Shown piece by piece: positions 1 to 8,005 of a stretch of 40,953 nt of DNA. The stretch lies in IMG/VR virus record IMGVR_UViG_2703718856_000008, positions 1-40,953 of that record. One strand, written 5' to 3'. Every line of letters begins with the position of its first letter. The first letter of the stretch is position 1. Under the pieces are notes generated by a model. It made no database searches. It saw only the letters and a program-made list of their open reading frames with translations, and was not told where the DNA came from. The position numbers and the translations under genes are program-made. Source of the DNA: a virus (lineage: Duplodnaviria > Heunggongvirae > Uroviricota > Caudoviricetes).

Positions 1-1158
1 ATGCTCACCGTTAAGCAGATTGAAGCAGCAAAGCCGAAAGAAAAACCATACCGCCTTCTCGATGGTAATGGCCTGTACCTTTATGTCCCTGTATCAGGGA
101 AAAAGGTATGGCAGCTTCGCTACAAGATTGACGGTAAGGAGAAAATCCTGACCGTCGGAAAATATCCGCTTATGACTTTGCAGGAGGCAAGGGATAAAGC
201 ATGGACCGCGAGGAAAGACATCTCGGTTGGCATCGATCCGGTAAAAGCGAAAAAGGCTTCGTCTAACAACAATTCCTTTAGTGCGATTTACAAGGAATGG
301 TACGAGCACAAGAAGCAAGTCTGGTCAGTAGGCTATGCAACTGAACTTGCCAAAATGTTTGATGACGACATTTTACCTATCATCGGCGGCCTTGAAATTC
401 AGGATATTGAGCCGATGCAACTGCTGGAAGTAATCCGCAGATTTGAAGATCGCGGTGCAATGGAGCGAGCCAACAAAGCACGCAGAAGATGCGGCGAGGT
501 TTTCCGTTACGCTATTGTCACCGGAAGGGCTAAATATAACCCGGCACCTGACCTTGCAGACGCCATGAAAGGATACCGCAAGAAGAACTTCCCGTTCCTT
601 CCAGCAGACCAGATCCCTGCATTCAACAAAGCACTGGCAACATTTTCAGGAAGTATCGTATCGCTCATTGCGACAAAAGTTTTACGTTATACAGCCCTAA
701 GAACGAAAGAGCTTCGTTCCATGCTATGGAAGAACGTCGATTTTGAAAACAGGATTATCACCATCGACGCCAGTGTGATGAAGGGCCGCAAAATTCATGT
801 GGTTCCTATGTCAGACCAGGTAGTTGAACTTCTCACTACGCTAAGCTCAATCACCAAACCAGTCTCAGATTTTGTTTTTGCCGGGCGCAACGATAAGAAG
901 AAACCAATCTGCGAGAACGCGGTATTGCTTGTGATCAAACAAATCGGCTATGAGGGGCTGGAAAGCGGTCACGGGTTCAGGCATGAATTCAGCACGATTA
1001 TGAACGAGCACGAATGGCCTGCTGACGCTATTGAAGTGCAACTGGCACATGCCAACGGCGGTTCTGTGCGCGGGATTTACAACCATGCTCAGTATCTCGA
1101 TAAGCGCAGAGAAATGATGCAGTGGTGGGCGGACTGGCTTGATGAGAAGGTTAGGTAG
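1..1158 (+). CDS. int: Tyrosine integrase, P4/IntS-like (DUF4102 N-terminal arm-binding domain plus C-terminal catalytic domain)
   Basis: 385-aa ORF; N-terminus MLTVKQIEAAKPKEKPYRLLDGNGLYLYV is typical of P4-family integrases; C-terminal motifs HGFRHEF and ...RGIYNHAQY fit the catalytic H-x-x-R and Tyr; recalled as near-identical to E. coli CPS-53/KplE1 IntS. Confidence 0.9.
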   Translation: MLTVKQIEAAKPKEKPYRLLDGNGLYLYVPVSGKKVWQLRYKIDGKEKILTVGKYPLMTLQEARDKAWTARKDISVGIDPVKAKKASSNNNSFSAIYKEWYEHKKQVWSVGYATELAKMFDDDILPIIGGLEIQDIEPMQLLEVIRRFEDRGAMERANKARRRCGEVFRYAIVTGRAKYNPAPDLADAMKGYRKKNFPFLPADQIPAFNKALATFSGSIVSLIATKVLRYTALRTKELRSMLWKNVDFENRIITIDASVMKGRKIHVVPMSDQVVELLTTLSSITKPVSDFVFAGRNDKKKPICENAVLLVIKQIGYEGLESGHGFRHEFSTIMNEHEWPADAIEVQLAHANGGSVRGIYNHAQYLDKRREMMQWWADWLDEKVR

Positions 1159-1313
1159 GCAAATCCATGCCTGAGCAGAGCCTTGCCCTCTACCTGAGCC
1201 CATGCTCATTCTTTGGCCTCAACGCGAGCATGACCTCACTGGCTGGACCCAAAATGGACTATGACAGAAAGATCTGATATTTTTCCTCGCAAAAACTTAG
1301 AGGCTTTATTTTA

Positions 1314-2315
1314 ATGCATAAGAGCAACTGCTTTGACACGGCAAGGCTTGTGGCAGCTATGATGGTTCTGGTCAGTCACCACTACGCGCTCTCTGGGCAG
1401 CCGGAGCCGTACCTGTTCGGCTTTGAAAGTGCTGGCGGCATTGCAGTTATCATATTCTTTTCAATATCAGGATATCTGATTTCAAAATCAGCTATCAGGA
1501 GTGATTCCTTTATTGATTTCATGGCTAAAAGAGCGAGAAGAATATTCCCGGCGCTGGTCCCTTGCTCTATACTGACATATTTTTTATTTGGATGGATACT
1601 TAACGACTTCAGCGCAGAATATTTTAGCCATGACATTGTCAGGAAGACCATAAGCTCTATTTTTATGAGTCAGGCTCCAGATGCTGACATTACATCACAT
1701 TTAATTCATGCCGGAATTAACGGCAGTTTGTGGACCCTACCGCTTGAGTTCCTGTGTTATATAATAACGGGAGTAGCAGTTGCCCTACTAAAGAACGGAA
1801 AAGCATTCATAGTTATACTGTTGGTTTTTGTTTCTCTTTCATTAATTGGAAGTGTGTCAGAAAACAGGGATGTAATGTTCTCTATTCCGTTATGGCTGTA
1901 TCCTTTGCGTGGACTGGCGTTCTTTTTTGGTGCCACTATGGCAATGTATGAGAAGTCATGGAATGTAAGTAATGTTAAAATTACTGTAGTTTCTTTGCTT
2001 GCTATGTACGCCTACGCTAGTTATGGCAAAGGCATTGATTATACTATGACTTGCTATATCCTGGTTTCATTCTCGACAATAGCCATATGCACATCCGTTG
2101 GCGACCCACTGGTTAAGGGCAGGTTTGATTACTCGTATGGTGTGTACATTTATGCATTCCCGGTTCAGCAGGTTGTTATAAACACATTGCACATGGGTTT
2201 TTACCCGTCAATGTTGTTAAGTGCCGTGACTGTTCTTTTCTTGTCCCATCTTTCATGGAATCTGGTTGAAAAAAGATTCCTGACACGAAGTTCGCCTAAA
2301 TTATCCCTGGATTGA
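1314..2315 (+). CDS. oac: O-antigen acetyltransferase, acyltransferase-3 family (Oac-like serotype-converting enzyme)
   Basis: 333-aa polytopic membrane protein; N-terminal acyltransferase-3 motifs (RLVAAMMVLVSHH, FFSISGYLIS, RRIFPAL); sits between int and tailspike as oac does in Sf6. Confidence 0.8.
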   Translation: MHKSNCFDTARLVAAMMVLVSHHYALSGQPEPYLFGFESAGGIAVIIFFSISGYLISKSAIRSDSFIDFMAKRARRIFPALVPCSILTYFLFGWILNDFSAEYFSHDIVRKTISSIFMSQAPDADITSHLIHAGINGSLWTLPLEFLCYIITGVAVALLKNGKAFIVILLVFVSLSLIGSVSENRDVMFSIPLWLYPLRGLAFFFGATMAMYEKSWNVSNVKITVVSLLAMYAYASYGKGIDYTMTCYILVSFSTIAICTSVGDPLVKGRFDYSYGVYIYAFPVQQVVINTLHMGFYPSMLLSAVTVLFLSHLSWNLVEKRFLTRSSPKLSLD

Positions 2316-2316
2316 A

Positions 2317-2348
2317 CAATAAAAGGGGCCATATGGCCCCTAAAATAA
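2317..2348. terminator. Bidirectional intrinsic terminator between convergent oac and tailspike
   Basis: Perfect hairpin GGGGCC-ATAT-GGCCCC at 2325-2340 flanked by an A-run upstream and T/A-rich sequence downstream; the U-tract is better on the minus strand. Confidence 0.5.
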
Positions 2349-4220
2349 TCAGATGGCCAGATACTCAACCATTGAAGGCAGCGCGACTCCTACTGGGCTT
2401 GGGCGAGTAACATTAATTGTCACCCCGGAAACACTAACCTTGTCACCACTTGATGCAGGGTCACCAAAAAGGCTTCTTACTCTGTATGTCAGGTTCCCCG
2501 GGTTCGGTATAGCTGCAGATCCGCTTGTGGCACCTGCCGCAACTGGGACATAAATGATCCCATTTACAGACGGTACGCCTGAACAGCCACGATACGTATT
2601 GTATCTGCCTTCCGGTTTCTGCACCTCGGTAATGCCAGCCAAATAACAGTCAGTAACTGACACGCCACCGCTACGAAGATAGCGTAGAGGCTTAGTGAAT
2701 ATGCACTTATCGAAAGAAACACATTCATTGATGTCGACAATATTTACAGCCCATTCATCACCAGTTAACGTACAACCACTTACAAAGACGAAGATCGCCG
2801 ACTGTTCTATCGCTATACTTTGATTGTTTGCAGCCGTGTTTTTGTTTGCAGTGTTGATATGAACACCACTGACAATTTTATGTGACTGCGTTGAGGTCGG
2901 CGTTCTAAAATATATCCCCGTAAATTGTTCAGTGCCATCGGCATCTGCTGCTATCCATGAGTTTGAGAAAGAAAATCCTCCGTTTACATTCTCTATAACC
3001 ACGCCTGTTGAGCCGCAATAATCTAAATCCAGTTGTTCCATATGCAAATCAAGGCAATCATGAACATAGACGGCATTTTTAAAACCAATGCACATGGTCT
3101 CACTGTCTAAAATTATTGCTTCTGACCTAACTGCCTCTGACGACCACGCATACGTTTGAGGCTGAATCCTGATGCCAAAGCTTTCATCAGCAGAATAATT
3201 TCCTCTGCTGAAATGGCAGGAGCTGACACTAACACTTACGCACTGGCCTAAAAAGTGAAGACCGACTCTACAGGTTCCAGCCTGACATGCTATAAATTTT
3301 GAGTGCCAGAGCCCTTGCATTAAATAAGCGGTTTCAACTTCATTCACCATTACATTATCAAATACCCAGCCATAAACCTGTCTGATGACAGAGTCTTCTG
3401 CTGTAATGTTTGTGTCAATACCATTGCAGGTGTTATTACCAGTTACTCGTATATTTCTCAGATAACGGCCGATAGTGTCTGAATCATAAGACAGCCTTAA
3501 CACAGATCCTGTAAGTCCGCTTTTTGCTCGGAGTTGCGATGCCTTACCAACCCCTCTGATGTTAACACCGCCAGGAATAAGCAAAGTGGATCCAACAATA
3601 TACCCCACCGCTTGGTTGCTCGCAGGGATAAACAGCTCCCCGCCGGAGGGTAGTGAAGCAACGGCATCTATTGCATTTTGTATTGCCTGGTAATTATCTG
3701 TCACACCATCATCAATAACACCAAAATCCAGGATACTTATTGCTTCTTTATTTTTGTCATGCTGAGTTCTTAAAACTGCTTTTGGTAAAGGCTGCTTGAC
3801 GCCAATCATGGCATCGCCTTTGGTGTTATCCTGCGAATACTTACCGGATTGAGCTAGTTGCTCAATTAAATCCGGACCGAACTGATCAGGGTCGTACTTC
3901 AGCACATTCTGAAAATAGAACTGCTGCGAACCATACGCATCATATACAGCCATTGAATGGCCTTGCTCAGTTACAAATTTGGCAATCTGCCCGTTGTACA
4001 CAGGATATCCGGCAGCATTGATAACAATTGGCTGAGAAACAGGGACGTGAGATCCGTCTTCATTCTCTACATAAACCTGCACTTGATTCTGTGGGAGCGT
4101 GGGATCGGAATCTATCTTACCAATGAATATCTTGCCATTGCTTGCGGCCTGGAATTTTCTGGCTAACGTAAATAGTTGACTTGGCATTGAAATTATAACA
4201 TTTGGCACAATATTTGACAT
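2349..4220 (-). CDS. Tailspike protein, Sf6-type endorhamnosidase (O-antigen receptor-binding and cleaving)
   Basis: 623-aa ORF, same length as Sf6 tailspike; P22-like N-terminal head-binding region (GKIDSDPTLPQNQVQVYVENEDGSHVPVSQPIVINAAGYPVYNGQIAKF); last gene of the virion module. Confidence 0.85.
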   Translation of the reverse strand: MSNIVPNVIISMPSQLFTLARKFQAASNGKIFIGKIDSDPTLPQNQVQVYVENEDGSHVPVSQPIVINAAGYPVYNGQIAKFVTEQGHSMAVYDAYGSQQFYFQNVLKYDPDQFGPDLIEQLAQSGKYSQDNTKGDAMIGVKQPLPKAVLRTQHDKNKEAISILDFGVIDDGVTDNYQAIQNAIDAVASLPSGGELFIPASNQAVGYIVGSTLLIPGGVNIRGVGKASQLRAKSGLTGSVLRLSYDSDTIGRYLRNIRVTGNNTCNGIDTNITAEDSVIRQVYGWVFDNVMVNEVETAYLMQGLWHSKFIACQAGTCRVGLHFLGQCVSVSVSSCHFSRGNYSADESFGIRIQPQTYAWSSEAVRSEAIILDSETMCIGFKNAVYVHDCLDLHMEQLDLDYCGSTGVVIENVNGGFSFSNSWIAADADGTEQFTGIYFRTPTSTQSHKIVSGVHINTANKNTAANNQSIAIEQSAIFVFVSGCTLTGDEWAVNIVDINECVSFDKCIFTKPLRYLRSGGVSVTDCYLAGITEVQKPEGRYNTYRGCSGVPSVNGIIYVPVAAGATSGSAAIPNPGNLTYRVRSLFGDPASSGDKVSVSGVTINVTRPSPVGVALPSMVEYLAI

Positions 4221-4240
4221 AGTGAATCTCTATTTAAGGA

Positions 4241-4735
4241 ATGAATATGATTACTCATAAAGAATTAACCTCTTCACTCAACTACAACCCAGAAACAGGC
4301 GTCTTCACTTGGAAGATAGCTTCTGGTAGCTCCAGTATCGGAAAGGTTGCTGGATTTAAGACGAACTCACAGGCCGACTACTTATCAATACGGATTAATG
4401 GAAAATCGTATCTTTGCCACCGACTTGCTTGGTTTTATATGAAAGGATGCTGGCCTAAAGGGTTAATTGACCATATTAACGGGGTTAAAAATGACAATAG
4501 AATTTCAAACCTAAGAGAAGTAACCAGAGGTCAGAATAAAACCAACAGCGTTTCATCATCCAATACAGGTATAAAAGGAGTTCATCTTCTTAAAGGGAAA
4601 AACACATATAAAGTTATGTTCAAACTAAAAGGTAAGTCTATTTGCCTTGGGTATACCGATGATATTGAGCTGGCCGAATTAATGTCTATTGCATTCAGGG
4701 AAAAATATCATGGCGAGTTTGCTTGTTTTAGATAA
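4241..4735 (+). CDS. Free-standing HNH endonuclease (HNH_3 / AP2-like DNA-binding type)
   Basis: 164 aa; motif SYLCHRLAWFYMKG...IDHINGVKNDNRISNLREVTRGQN typical of phage HNH homing endonucleases; RBS AAGGA upstream; opposite strand to flanking tailspike and ant. Confidence 0.7.
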   Translation: MNMITHKELTSSLNYNPETGVFTWKIASGSSSIGKVAGFKTNSQADYLSIRINGKSYLCHRLAWFYMKGCWPKGLIDHINGVKNDNRISNLREVTRGQNKTNSVSSSNTGIKGVHLLKGKNTYKVMFKLKGKSICLGYTDDIELAELMSIAFREKYHGEFACFR

Positions 4736-4803
4736 TGTCTGTCATTTAATTTGCTCCAGATACAAGGAATCACCGAAGCATGGCTACGATGAATTTTGGG
4801 CAT

Positions 4804-4826
4804 AAAAAAACCCAGCCGAAGCTGGG
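4804..4826 (-). terminator. Intrinsic terminator downstream of ant
   Basis: Hairpin CCCAGC-CGAA-GCTGGG (4811-4826) followed on the minus strand by a 7-nt U-tract (the A-run at 4804-4810 on plus). Confidence 0.5.
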
Positions 4827-4845
4827 TCGTTGCGTTGGTTATCTG

Positions 4846-5748
4846 TCAGTAGTTATGTACTGAAGGAGGTAATTCTTTATTCTTAAGTCTCATCCATGCG
4901 GAAAGATTCGTTGGTCCGTCTGGCTCATTGATATCAACATCTCGTGTGTGATTAATTAAAACGTCTCTCGCCATTCCGATAACATACGAGAACTCATGAC
5001 CGTAGTCGTAGCATCTGCCGGAATAGTTCGATTGAATTTGTTTTAGCGCCGGATACAGTTCGCGGAATAATGCCTGCGAACGGTTGGCATAATCCCATAA
5101 CCATACAAGGCTGTTTGCTTCTTTTGCAGAAAGCTCGTTGGTTTTCTTCTCTTGTTTGCCGATGAACTCACCTTCAAGCACTACCCTGTGGATGTACTCT
5201 ACGGCTTGCGGTATCTGAGATGCATCAAGCTCTTCAATACTGTCCACATTGAAACGCTGATGAATCATTGCATAAGCTTCTGGGTACATTAGATGCTTTT
5301 TGCTGACTAGCATATTTACAGCATCACGAAGCGGAGTCCTGTCATCAACAGATGTTTTCTTACGTGCATTTTCTTCCTTTCCCTTTGTCCAGTAGTCATG
5401 CAGCACAGTAAAGCATTCTTCCTGGTACTGAATAAGTTTATCGCGGATGTCAGCACGAACTTTCTCAGGGTTGATGCTGAACAGCCACCCATTTAACTTC
5501 TTCAAAGGAAGGCAGAGTAACTTACGAAGCTTCCCATCAGCGGCAACCATGTTCATATGAACACAGTTGAATTTGCTAATCTGCTTCATGAGTTTTGTTT
5601 GCTGCGTTGACCAGCTCATTCCAAGGTTTTCAACGATTGGCTTCATCGCAACATATGCAACTCCGACAGCCATGGCGGTGATAATTTGCTGACCGTTGAA
5701 TGGTACGTAAGAGGTGTTCACTGCTTCTAAAATTGCTATACTATTCAT
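4846..5748 (-). CDS. ant: Antirepressor Ant (P22 AR N-terminal domain plus Ant C-terminal domain)
   Basis: ORF extends to 5814 with a GTG start, but the ATG at 5748 with GGAG upstream gives [21 protein letters not shown]... and a 300-aa product matching P22 Ant; sits in the immI context downstream of arc. Confidence 0.8.
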
Positions 5749-5810
5749 GTTGGTTTTTCTCCACGGATTTACTGACAACCGAAGCCCTGACTGTTCCCGC
5801 AGTTGGGGCT

Positions 5811-6032
5811 TCACTGTTTTTGTAAGTCACTGTAGCTATAAAGCCACTGACCACTCATTTTTGATTTGATTGACTCTACTGAATCACGGCAAGGAATGAT
5901 TCCACCTGACATCATTCTGATCTCCGTAAATTCACCACTCCTTATCGACTCAATGCCATTAACGTTAACTAAAGATTTACCTCTACCAAGTGCATTCTCA
6001 TAGCCAATCTCATCAACCTCGATAAACTTCAT
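5811..6032 (-). CDS. Hypothetical 73-aa protein inserted between arc and ant
   Basis: ORF translationally coupled to both neighbours (4-nt overlaps at each end); no recognisable domain. Confidence 0.4.
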
Positions 6033-6181
6033 ACCGTTATCCCCTCTCTCTTCAGGCTGTCCAGCAATCGCTTAATCACTTCCGAGTTAAACGACCGGCA
6101 TTCTTCTTTGGCCTTTCCTGTAATCGCATCTTTTAGCGACTGAGGCATTCTCACCAAAATTCTGCTAACTTCTTTTTCCAT
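6029..6181 (-). CDS. arc: Arc-like ribbon-helix-helix repressor
   Basis: 50 aa from the ATG at 6181 (GGTGG RBS); MPQSLKDAITGKAKEECRSFNSEVIKRLLDSLKREG resembles P22 Arc (RHH fold, NSE motif). Confidence 0.7.
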   Translation of the reverse strand: MEKEVSRILVRMPQSLKDAITGKAKEECRSFNSEVIKRLLDSLKREGITV

Positions 6182-6290
6182 ATCGCCACCACGTGAGTTA
6201 TTGTGAATCACAAACATATCACCGTGACTATATCAAGTCAAAATTTTTTTGAATACACTGTGATATCAATGTGATTATCACGGTGTAAGT
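6182..6290. promoter_or_regulatory. immI divergent promoter/operator region (Pant/Pmnt-like) with three palindromic operator candidates
   Basis: Palindromes TTGTGAATCACAA (6201-6213), TGATATCA (6261-6268) and GTGATTATCAC (6271-6281) between divergent arc and mnt. Confidence 0.55.
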
Positions 6291-6545
6291 ATGACGAAGG
6301 TTAGAGACATAGCCCCATATAGCGTAAGAATGCCAGATAGCCTCAAGCGCGACCTGACCATAAGAGCATCGAAAAACGGACGCTCATTAAATTCAGAAAT
6401 AGTTATGATCTTGCAAGCTGCTATTGATGAAGAAAAATCACCAAGATCAATAGAAGGTTTTGCTCAACAAGAATCTGAAAAATTTAGGGAGGCTCTTCTT
6501 AAGACTCTCAGCAGCATGTACGGAGAAGATAAAAAACCCACCTGA
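6291..6545 (+). CDS. mnt: Mnt-like ribbon-helix-helix repressor
   Basis: 84 aa; RMPDSLKRDLTIRASKNGRSLNSEIVMILQAAI fits the RHH motif of P22 Mnt (83 aa); transcribed divergently from arc/ant. Confidence 0.75.
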   Translation: MTKVRDIAPYSVRMPDSLKRDLTIRASKNGRSLNSEIVMILQAAIDEEKSPRSIEGFAQQESEKFREALLKTLSSMYGEDKKPT

Positions 6546-6558
6546 CGGTGGGTTTTAT
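6531..6558. terminator. Bidirectional intrinsic terminator between mnt and the convergent toxin-like gene
   Basis: AAAAAA-CCCACC-TGAC-GGTGGG-TTTTATT; hairpin with an A-run on one side and a T-run on the other; overlaps both stop codons. Confidence 0.55.
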
Positions 6559-6977
6559 TAGTGCTTGTATAGGTTGAACTCTCTATCAAGCCATATAACA
6601 AAAAATGTCGATCCAAGACGATAACCAACCATGGCTTTCAAATCATCAAATCTAAAAGCCAAGAAATGATCTACGTCTTCCGTTATATGACTGGGGATAC
6701 CTGCTTTAATTGCACCCCTTGCAATCTTCTCAAATCCAAGCTTATGCCTACCTTGCTGCTTAATATCTGCCCATGTTAGTTGACTTAATCTGTATAATTT
6801 ATCAGCTAAGCCAGCTTTCTCATCTTTTTGGCATTTCGTTATGCAGTGAGAGCTTTGGATGTAACAGAATGAAAATTTCGGTTTCTTTTGATCTGAATTC
6901 CCCCCTGACTGCGGCCCTAACTTTAACTTACCTGTAGATTCAGCAGGGGGGATAATCCTTTTAGATTTTCTTGCCAT
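6558..6977 (-). CDS. Hypothetical protein, candidate toxin partner of the upstream Panacea-domain protein
   Basis: 139 aa from the ATG at 6977, 4 nt after the upstream stop; basic low-complexity N-terminus, conserved-looking C-terminus (HFLAFRFDDLKAMVGYRLGSTFFVIWLDREFNLYKH); the ORF could also start at the TTG at 7052; function is inferred from context only. Confidence 0.4.
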   Translation of the reverse strand: MARKSKRIIPPAESTGKLKLGPQSGGNSDQKKPKFSFCYIQSSHCITKCQKDEKAGLADKLYRLSQLTWADIKQQGRHKLGFEKIARGAIKAGIPSHITEDVDHFLAFRFDDLKAMVGYRLGSTFFVIWLDREFNLYKH

Positions 6978-6981
6978 CTCG

Positions 6982-7431
6982 TTAGTTAATCCGAGTTGCA
7001 AAGTACTCTGCCATCTCCTTAGAACTAATTTCAGAACCACCAACACCCTCAATATAGTTTGATCTCCATGGTGACTCTTCGTGTGTCATGTTCCTCAGTT
7101 TCCAGGCAGAAAATTGCCCAAAAACATCCCAGACTTCTTCTAATAGCTCTAACTGTTCTTCGCTGAATTTTTCAGCATCAAAAGACTCTGGAGAAGGGAT
7201 AGCACCATTACCATATTGTTTATAACGGTGATAAAGCTCAGGGACAACAGGGCCATGCATCCAAGCTTCCATCTTATTCTGAAAAAGAGGCTCGCCAAGC
7301 AACGCCAATGAAAAACCCTGAGCATAGTAAACAAGCTTTTGTAATTTTAAATTAGAGATTGCGTCACCGCTATCCTCGTCACACCGCGACAGGAAGTAGT
7401 CGGCGACATCAAAACAAGTAAGCATGAACAC
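6982..7431 (-). CDS. Panacea (DUF4065) domain protein, putative antitoxin (GepA/SocA-like)
   Basis: 149 aa; SNLKLQKLVYYAQGFSLALLGEPLFQNKMEAWMHGPVVPELYHRYKQYG matches the DUF4065/Panacea signature (KLQKL-YYAQ ... W-HGPV-LY). Confidence 0.6.
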   Translation of the reverse strand: MFMLTCFDVADYFLSRCDEDSGDAISNLKLQKLVYYAQGFSLALLGEPLFQNKMEAWMHGPVVPELYHRYKQYGNGAIPSPESFDAEKFSEEQLELLEEVWDVFGQFSAWKLRNMTHEESPWRSNYIEGVGGSEISSKEMAEYFATRIN

Positions 7432-7799
7432 ACCTCCATCTTGATAGCCACAGCTAAGTATCCAACTATGTCAAATGTCATTTAATACTATAACAAAGCT
7501 ATCAGCAATCCTTCGGAGGCTAACTTACAACCACTTTAGCGACATGTTTAAACCATTACGTTTCACATTTACTGCATTTTCGCCGAAGTTACCTATAAGG
7601 TAATGTCACATTTCCTGCAAGTTTCATGCAATGTTGAAAAGTGAGCTATTCACTTTTCTATGACACCAAACACCAAAAATAGCACTTTTTGCTAAATCAT
7701 TCGTCCAAGTTGTGGATGGTTTGTCGTTGACACGTTTTCACACACCACTCCACCAATAAAGTATCATCTGGTATCCTGAGCAAAACTAAGGAGGTTGGT

Positions 7800-7988
7800 G
7801 TGAAGAAAAAATTTGTAAACGTTGCAAAGTGCGCAATTTTTATATTTTTTATGACCTTTTACGGATTTAGTGCCGGAGAAGGTTTCGATCGTGATGCCAA
7901 TGCATTCAGTTTCTTTTGTCTGTCTATAGTGGTCATAATTGTATGGGTGGAATTAAAGCAAACATTGTTTCATGTGCTAGGGAAATAA
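7800..7988 (+). CDS. Small hydrophobic (two predicted TM segments) membrane protein
   Basis: 62 aa, GTG start 5 nt after a perfect AAGGAGG RBS (7788-7794); hydrophobic stretches AIFIFFMTFYGF and FFCLSIVVIIVWV; lone plus-strand gene in a 570-bp AT-rich gap. Confidence 0.45.
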   Translation: MKKKFVNVAKCAIFIFFMTFYGFSAGEGFDRDANAFSFFCLSIVVIIVWVELKQTLFHVLGK

Positions 7989-8005
7989 CCATCCATGGCA
8001 TTTAG

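Follow-up and report, generated by a model that had tools for sequence, protein, structure and literature searches.

Free-standing homing endonucleases of the T-even phages, the Seg and Mob enzymes of intronless homing, are encoded beside a conserved essential gene, show presence/absence polymorphism and carry adjacent polymorphisms along with them. They belong to nuclease families other than the one considered here (GIY-YIG or another HNH type), and their genes are intergenic, are oriented in the same sense as the neighboring gene and occur in lytic phages. The HNH enzymes I-HmuI and I-HmuII are encoded by introns within the DNA polymerase genes of phages SPO1 and SP82, and possess a D-H...N...N core which lacks zinc-binding cysteines. 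Goodrich-Blair and Shub reportedly found in 1996 that related enzymes at allelic positions in related phages compete and exclude flanking markers. Free-standing genes for HNN-AP2 endonucleases are variably present in phages Xp10, OP1, Xop411, T1, T5 and Rtp and in Jersey-like Salmonella phages. In the Xanthomonas phages, conserved flanks of these genes were not found and their insertion looked independent of sequence (PMC2248197).

The locus described here is contained in a stretch of 40,953 nucleotides (IMG/VR record IMGVR_UViG_2703718856_000008), referred to below as the window, which is a P22-like (Lederbergvirus) prophage that is reversed relative to the usual P22 map. An earlier note on this DNA had interpreted an isolated HNH gene near the tailspike gene as a mobile homing endonuclease insertion. 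Comparison with related phages supports this interpretation in that most relatives lack the gene, the junction is exact, and the inserted DNA is far less diverse than the DNA that flanks it. It is probable (roughly 75%) that the ORF is a free-standing homing-type HNN-AP2 (I-HmuI-like) gene, and that this gene and a substitute 5' end of the tailspike gene make up a mobile cassette of ~650 bp that is propagated by homing.

The locus resembles those of the T-even phages in having a free-standing gene, a conserved essential neighbor, presence/absence polymorphism and linked polymorphisms. Its product shares the D-H...N...N core without zinc-binding cysteines with I-HmuI and I-HmuII, but the gene lies outside any intron and on the strand opposite to the gene that it interrupts. 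The C-terminal module is an AP2 domain rather than the helix-turn-helix of I-HmuI. Architecture and sequence boxes are the same as those of the free-standing HNN-AP2 genes listed above. Unlike the latter, however, the insertion is within a coding sequence and comes with a compensating start, and the host phage is temperate; and in contrast to the Xanthomonas phage genes, three lineages share one junction to the nucleotide. One of these lineages is represented by Kapi1_066 of Escherichia phage Kapi1, which has the same junction and orientation and whose product is ~42% identical to that of the gene in the window.

That the gene encodes an HNH protein is already known, as it is annotated 'HNH endonuclease' in both RefSeq (WP_047668242.1, an identical protein in E. 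coli prophages) and Kapi1. No discussion of an HNH gene at the ant-tailspike junction was found in the Kapi1 papers or the searchable literature, and the main text of the Kapi1 lysogen transcriptome paper does not mention the gene. The HNH fusion in the epsilon34 paper is a different one, located in the early-left operon, and the HNH gene of SEN22 is between terminase and portal. What is new is the insertion within a coding sequence with its compensating start, the three allelic lineages at one nucleotide, and the low diversity of the cassette compared with its diverse flanks. Lytic phages commonly encode free-standing HNH-AP2 homing endonucleases. The locus described here is a sharply bounded case from temperate P22-like phages, more a convenient experimental case than a surprise, and it alters the understanding of no system. 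The exact empty site is available in the model phages Sf6, P22, HK620 and epsilon34, and the three allelic endonuclease lineages could be pitted against one another experimentally.

Genetic Context of the HNH Gene

The left end of the window contains genes encoding an integrase (positions 1-1158, plus strand) and an O-antigen acetyltransferase (oac; 1314-2315, plus strand), which are followed by the tailspike gene (2349-4220, minus strand; Head_binding and Tailspike_C domains). The HNH ORF (4241-4735, plus strand; probable start at 4247) is antisense between the tailspike gene and ant (4846-5814, minus strand), whose product has P22_AR_N and P22_AR_C domains. An arc-like gene (6029-6217, minus strand) and a mnt-like gene (6291-6545, plus strand) follow, and sar RNA was recognized at 5749-5815 on the plus strand (Rfam RF00262, 87.7 bits). 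P22-like phages package DNA by headfuls from a pac site.

From 1201 to 4079, a stretch spanning oac and most of gene 14, the window is 99.9% identical to Shigella phage Sf6, and the prophage has in this match the serotype-converting acetylase and the receptor-binding domain of Sf6. The immI region (ant, arc and mnt) is present in the prophage; the Sf6 record has none, and gene 13 (injection protein) is directly upstream of the tailspike gene there.

The HNH Protein

The intact 164-residue ORF with an HNH motif that the earlier note reported at 4241-4735 was confirmed, with matches to Pfam HNH_3 (E = 4.3e-15, amino acids 57-99) and to PHROG 99, 'HNH endonuclease' (1e-60). Translation probably starts at the second ATG, at 4247, to give a product of 162 amino acids, because the likely Shine-Dalgarno sequence AAGGA read at 4236-4240 (plus strand) directly abuts the first ATG (0 nt to 4241) and is 6 nt from the second. 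The identical RefSeq protein is annotated from the 4247 start.

When 41 and 63 members of the family were aligned, D75-H76 (the Asp-His pair), N88 and N100 proved invariant, and conservation of N84 and N97 was 90% or higher. All of the family boxes (HRLAW, WP, DH, DNR, NLRE and QN) are found in the protein, and the same boxes characterize phage HNN-AP2 endonucleases (PMC2248197). The N-terminal two thirds of the family profile matched the homing endonuclease I-HmuI (1U3E; 9e-9) and the C-terminal third matched plant AP2/ERF domains (WRI1; 1.7e-9), matches which identify the protein as an I-HmuI-like HNH ("HNN") putative nuclease with an AP2 DNA-binding module. It has the features of this well-known phage class, namely a beta-beta-alpha-metal core with an Asp-His general base and conserved Asn (H-N-N) and a C-terminal AP2 domain, in which a three-stranded sheet packs on a helix. 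HNH_3 and AP2 were the domains for which the earlier note had proposed a profile search, and loss of catalytic residues was to count against its interpretation; both domains were found and the residues are kept.

The closest relatives of the protein (43-50% identity) are products of free-standing genes in siphoviruses and metagenomes. In a protein search of bacterial genome contigs, all matches were distant (33-48% identity), came from unrelated bacteria and had uninformative contexts, and a search of NCBIfam gave no match.

Anatomy of the Insertion and Restart of the Tailspike Gene

The earlier note placed the HNH gene between tailspike and ant. While both neighbors are indeed on the opposite strand, the gene actually interrupts codon 5 of the ancestral tailspike ORF. 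Phages without the HNH gene (epsilon34, CUS-3, HK620 and phiv205-1) match the right flank (4733-4845) at 96-98% identity, and the shared sequence reaches past the intergenic DNA to include, on the minus strand, the canonical ribosome-binding site (RBS) GGAGCAAATTAA as well as ATGACAGACATTA, the 13 nt with which the canonical tailspike gene (MTDI...) begins. Because the shared flank holds the old RBS and these 13 nt, the HNH gene must have been inserted within codon 5. The start of the epsilon34 tailspike CDS falls within the flank match, and the right junction was aligned with both Kapi1 and epsilon34. In this alignment the original tailspike start is orphaned at 4728-4757 on the minus strand. 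It consists of the RBS (4757 to 4746), the 13 nt of the old start (4745 to 4733) and a five-codon orphan ORF that results from the insertion, MTDII and a stop codon (4745 to 4728). The stop codon of the HNH gene, TAA at 4733-4735, provides the first three nucleotides in common with phages in which the tailspike gene is uninterrupted.

The tailspike and HNH genes now start divergently from either side of a 20-nt spacer (4221-4240) that carries both ribosome-binding regions, the one in the tailspike sense reading ...ATAGAGATTCACT-ATG. Codons 1-47 of the tailspike gene (4080-4220, minus strand; MSNIVPNVIIS...) are a replacement and are strongly diverged from all alleles without the HNH gene. Compared with Sf6, 57 of their 141 nt differ (~40%), which affects 19 codons synonymously and 17 non-synonymously and includes TCG-to-AGT serine switches. 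The remainder of the gene, codons 48-623 (2349-4079, minus strand), is of the Sf6 type according to both alignment and domains, and only 4 of the 1,731 nt in these 576 codons differ (99.8% identity), so that there is an abrupt edge at codon 47/48. Alignments with Sf6 and epsilon34 delimit the cassette to 4080-4732, ~650 bp which comprise the new tailspike 5' end, the spacer and the HNH gene. The tailspike stays intact, as the cassette brings a new RBS, an ATG and 47 diverged codons, and insertion inside an essential structural gene is tolerated because of the new translation start. For annotation, this means that carriers have an altered tailspike N-terminus (MSNIVPNV...) and a five-codon orphan ORF behind the canonical RBS.

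A search of window positions 2000-8000 against Rfam (E ≤ 1) revealed no group I intron or other structured RNA at the site. An intron- or intein-encoded gene was rejected given that the ORF is opposite to the tailspike strand, Rfam detects no intron and the tailspike gene restarts from its own ATG.

Hairpins and Promoters

The earlier note described the hairpins on either side of the HNH gene as bidirectional and terminator-like, which the scan did not support. Intrinsic terminators are predicted on the minus strand alone (2324-2341 and 4809-4828), and in the plus-strand reading of the terminator scan both hairpins are followed by A-rich or mixed sequence. Nor do the hairpins bracket the HNH gene as a unit, as both are outside the insertion and native to relatives without the gene. 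The one at 4809-4828 (minus strand) is the ant/late-operon intrinsic terminator native to P22-like phages. epsilon34 annotates it as the ant terminator, a terminator is likewise listed at the match in the records of P22, HK620 and Emek, and it is within flank that is 96-98% identical in relatives lacking the HNH gene. The other hairpin (2324-2341), which Sf6 annotates as the terminator of oac, is at the distal end of the tailspike gene, 1.9 kb from the HNH gene.

When the window, Kapi1 and the type-C carrier L083 (types A, B and C are defined below) were scanned with a promoter consensus, nothing above shuffle expectation was found for the HNH gene. The scan of the window gave a single 9/12 match at 4187-4214, which is not above that expectation, and for types B and C no promoter for the HNH gene passes the scan. 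In Kapi1, TGTATAAT is an extended -10-like motif seen by eye only. A tailspike-sense promoter-like site inside the HNH gene (TAGACA-18-TATCAT, 10/12; 4659-4688, minus strand) could drive separate transcription of the displaced tailspike gene, with promoter-like sites in the region being no more common than in shuffled sequences.

Occupied and Empty Junctions

IMG/VR was scanned with 24 nt spanning the canonical tailspike start, which yielded 110 junctions with enough flank. Since this motif fixes 24 nt around the canonical start and chose the sample, conservation of that stretch among the 110 is by construction. The tailspike gene is uninterrupted in 103 of these junctions and interrupted in 7. 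A second IMG/VR scan, specific for occupied junctions, identified 23 loci. All occupied junctions are of three types with one orientation and an identical junction nucleotide: type A, found in the window; type B, found in Kapi1; and type C, with a product of 179-184 amino acids. Among 5,426 complete E. coli genomes, type A is present in 7, type B in 15 and type C in 15, while the flank is present in 1,104. Between 104 and 107 phage records match the flank, depending on the query, and among the matches listed an HNH gene is annotated at this position only in Kapi1.

The earlier note had called for a comparison of the tailspike-ant junction in relatives with and without the gene, and held that presence of the gene in all relatives would argue against mobility. 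The comparison revealed presence/absence polymorphism, the gene being missing from most relatives (the 103 uninterrupted IMG/VR junctions), and in E. coli the allele is found in 7 genomes as opposed to ~1,100 with the flank. E. coli ET479 (NZ_CP100950.1) has two matches to the recoded tailspike 5' segment, and its match to the HNH region ends at 95% of the query; the strain may have a second or rearranged copy of the cassette.

Three Lineages at One Junction

In types A, B and C the shared flank starts at the TAA of TAATGTCTGTCAT. The three proteins are 29-41% identical to each other, and the types do not cluster in a neighbor-joining tree, which is star-like and compatible with either one ancient insertion or three. 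They differ in the extent to which the tailspike gene is altered. The tailspike is diverged through codon 47 in type A and through codon 27 in type B, while in type C only codons 3-6 are changed relative to the canonical tailspike and there is one extra codon. All three occupied alleles thus depart from the canonical tailspike at codons 2-6, and the insertion splits the site, so that the region altered in every type is the insertion point itself. These changes and the split site are consistent with immunity of the occupied alleles to the putative nuclease.

The HNH ORFs of types A, B and C all end in AGR-TAA, and an ATAGAGA remnant before the new tailspike start is common to types A and C. The shared ending and the remnants are hints of one ancient insertion with target duplication, followed by deep divergence. 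Type C keeps an imperfect direct repeat of ~20 nt, comprising the RBS and ATGACAGA, on both sides of the HNH gene. In the type-C carriers L083 (4578-4600 and about 3975-4000) and L140, the imperfect repeats that flank the gene are GAGAAATTAAAATGACAGA and GGAGCAAATTAAATGACAGA. The type-C repeat could be the footprint of the original insertion as well as a substrate for precise excision.

Evidence for Mobility

Among ten carriers, no pair of type-A cassettes falls below 97.9% identity, and the medians are 99.3-99.6%. In the same ten carriers, identity in the left flank (DNA for the head-binding domain) falls to 91% and then to 80% before the sequences become unrelated, and identity in the right flank goes down to 54%. 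Flank diversity in the carriers equals that of 98 phages lacking the HNH gene, which serve as the background (92%, 85% and 53%). For the first 141 nt of the tailspike gene, phages without the HNH gene are 93.6% identical and only 3% of pairs reach at least 99%. The diverged tailspike 5' segment has 57-65% identity with 100 canonical alleles (93.6% identity among themselves), and within E. coli it occurs only in the same 7 genomes as the type-A HNH gene. Each HNH type occurs with 7 or more different tailspike bodies, and the type-A allele is found in flanks with or without the immI region and at two or more integration sites. Only 4 nucleotide differences, all of them synonymous, distinguish the type-A genes of different carriers. 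The low diversity of the cassette, the diversity of its flanks, the linkage of its parts and the restriction of differences to synonymous ones indicate that the cassette is a recently spreading and selectively maintained module.

Polymorphism at one defined site in homologous genomes and, on comparative evidence, horizontal spread with short co-converted flanks are features of homing genes, and both were found at this locus. The HNH ORF is intact with conserved catalytic residues in about 20 IMG/VR carriers with enough flank and in two E. coli type-A loci. Degenerate or lost copies, which would complete the classical homing cycle, were not seen among the loci examined.

Proposed Homing Mechanism

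By analogy with I-HmuI-type and free-standing homing endonucleases, we infer a homing cycle that would begin when P22-like genomes with and without the cassette come together in a cell, either by co-infection or by superinfection of a lysogen. The enzyme would use its N-terminal sheet and its AP2 domain to bind an extended site, recognize the empty junction around ATGACAGACATTA/CAGCC and nick or cut at or near the tailspike start. Repair of the break from the carrier would copy in the HNH gene and the diverged codons. The right homology arm would be the conserved sequence upstream of the tailspike gene, a stretch which CUS-3 annotates as 'bsq1; boundary sequence', and the left arm would be the conserved patch encoding QVYVENEDGSH. 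The split site and the recoded 5' codons would protect the carrier allele from cutting. Alternatively, the diverged tailspike codons could be mere flanking DNA from a distant donor lineage rather than selected immunity. The low frequency of the cassette (~3% of junctions) counts against homing, being unexpected for a vigorously homing element.

A broader role for the site is conceivable but doubtful. The 13th nucleotide of the tailspike gene might be a long-lived battleground of three anciently diverged HNN-AP2 lineages, each with a recoded, self-immune tailspike 5' end. Because the site adjoins a host-range determinant and prophages may make the enzyme, such lineages could exclude superinfecting relatives and promote exchange of tailspike modules among temperate phages of E. 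coli, Shigella and Salmonella.

Alternative Explanations

The HNH gene could instead be a prophage 'moron' encoding an exclusion or defense nuclease. Expressed in the lysogen from its own promoter, antisense to the late operon, the enzyme would cut the conserved tailspike 5' region of incoming P22-like phages and so degrade or disable them, to the benefit of lysogen and prophage more than to the spread of the gene itself. All three types have the gene oriented against the late operon, and the region holds conversion and exclusion genes (oac, the immI region and, at 6558-7431, a pair resembling a Panacea toxin-antitoxin system). A Skunavirus study (PMC12724721) describes marker exclusion of an infecting phage by I-HmuI-like enzymes expressed alone. 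The scans support no promoter, however, and the sole PADLOC match of the protein is to a generic 'homing endonuclease' model (7e-7). The occurrence of a cassette of low diversity on diverse backgrounds, strictly linked to a diverged target-side segment, also fits self-propagation better, and a defense role as the primary explanation appears unlikely. It overlaps with marker exclusion by homing endonucleases, and the two explanations are not mutually exclusive.

A passive passenger is harder still to reconcile with the data. The HNH protein would be inactive, or never have been active at this site, and its gene would be carried within a variant head-binding segment by ordinary mosaic recombination at boundary sequences. 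Consistent with this possibility, the cassette edges coincide with conserved recombination patches such as the annotated CUS-3 boundary sequence, tailspike bodies are exchanged freely within the P22-like group, and the HNH gene is infrequent. Yet the ORF and its catalytic residues are preserved in all full-length copies examined, the differences among type-A carriers are all synonymous, and the cassette is far less diverse than the background for the same tailspike segment (99.3% versus 93.6% identity). Moreover, each of three lineages that are 29-41% identical keeps an intact nuclease gene at the same nucleotide, which is hard to explain without selection on the nuclease. Passive carriage is accordingly a quite improbable account next to propagation by homing.

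A terminase-associated HNH protein aiding packaging, as in HK97-like cos phages, has virtually no chance of being correct, and the earlier note had already judged it less likely from distance: nothing but the HNH motif itself favors it, the gene is ~15 kb from the packaging genes of a headful-packaging phage type with ejection, tail and head genes intervening (large minus-strand ORFs span 8006 to about 21700), most relatives with the same virion module lack the gene, and the protein belongs to the I-HmuI/AP2 class and not to the zinc-finger HNH class (a distinction drawn in PMC2248197). Genes of the HK97 gp74 class are beside terminase and portal of a cos phage and present in all relatives, whereas this gene is at the tailspike/immI junction and patchy in its presence.

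Other Genes near the Junction

The sar antisense RNA overlaps the 5' end of ant on the opposite strand, and its placement is that of the annotated sar RNA of epsilon34. Between ant and the arc-like gene is an ORF of 73 amino acids (5811-6032, minus strand) without a match in Pfam, which would be an additional gene of the Pant operon relative to P22 and epsilon34. A protein with a SocA/Panacea antitoxin domain (Pfam, 8e-25) is encoded at 6982-7431 on the minus strand, and its gene overlaps an ORF of 164 amino acids at 6558-7052 on the same strand, which has a weak PADLOC match to NsnC (7e-6) and no match in Pfam or NCBIfam. The two genes are in the slot of P22 sieA and look like a toxin-antitoxin or defense pair.
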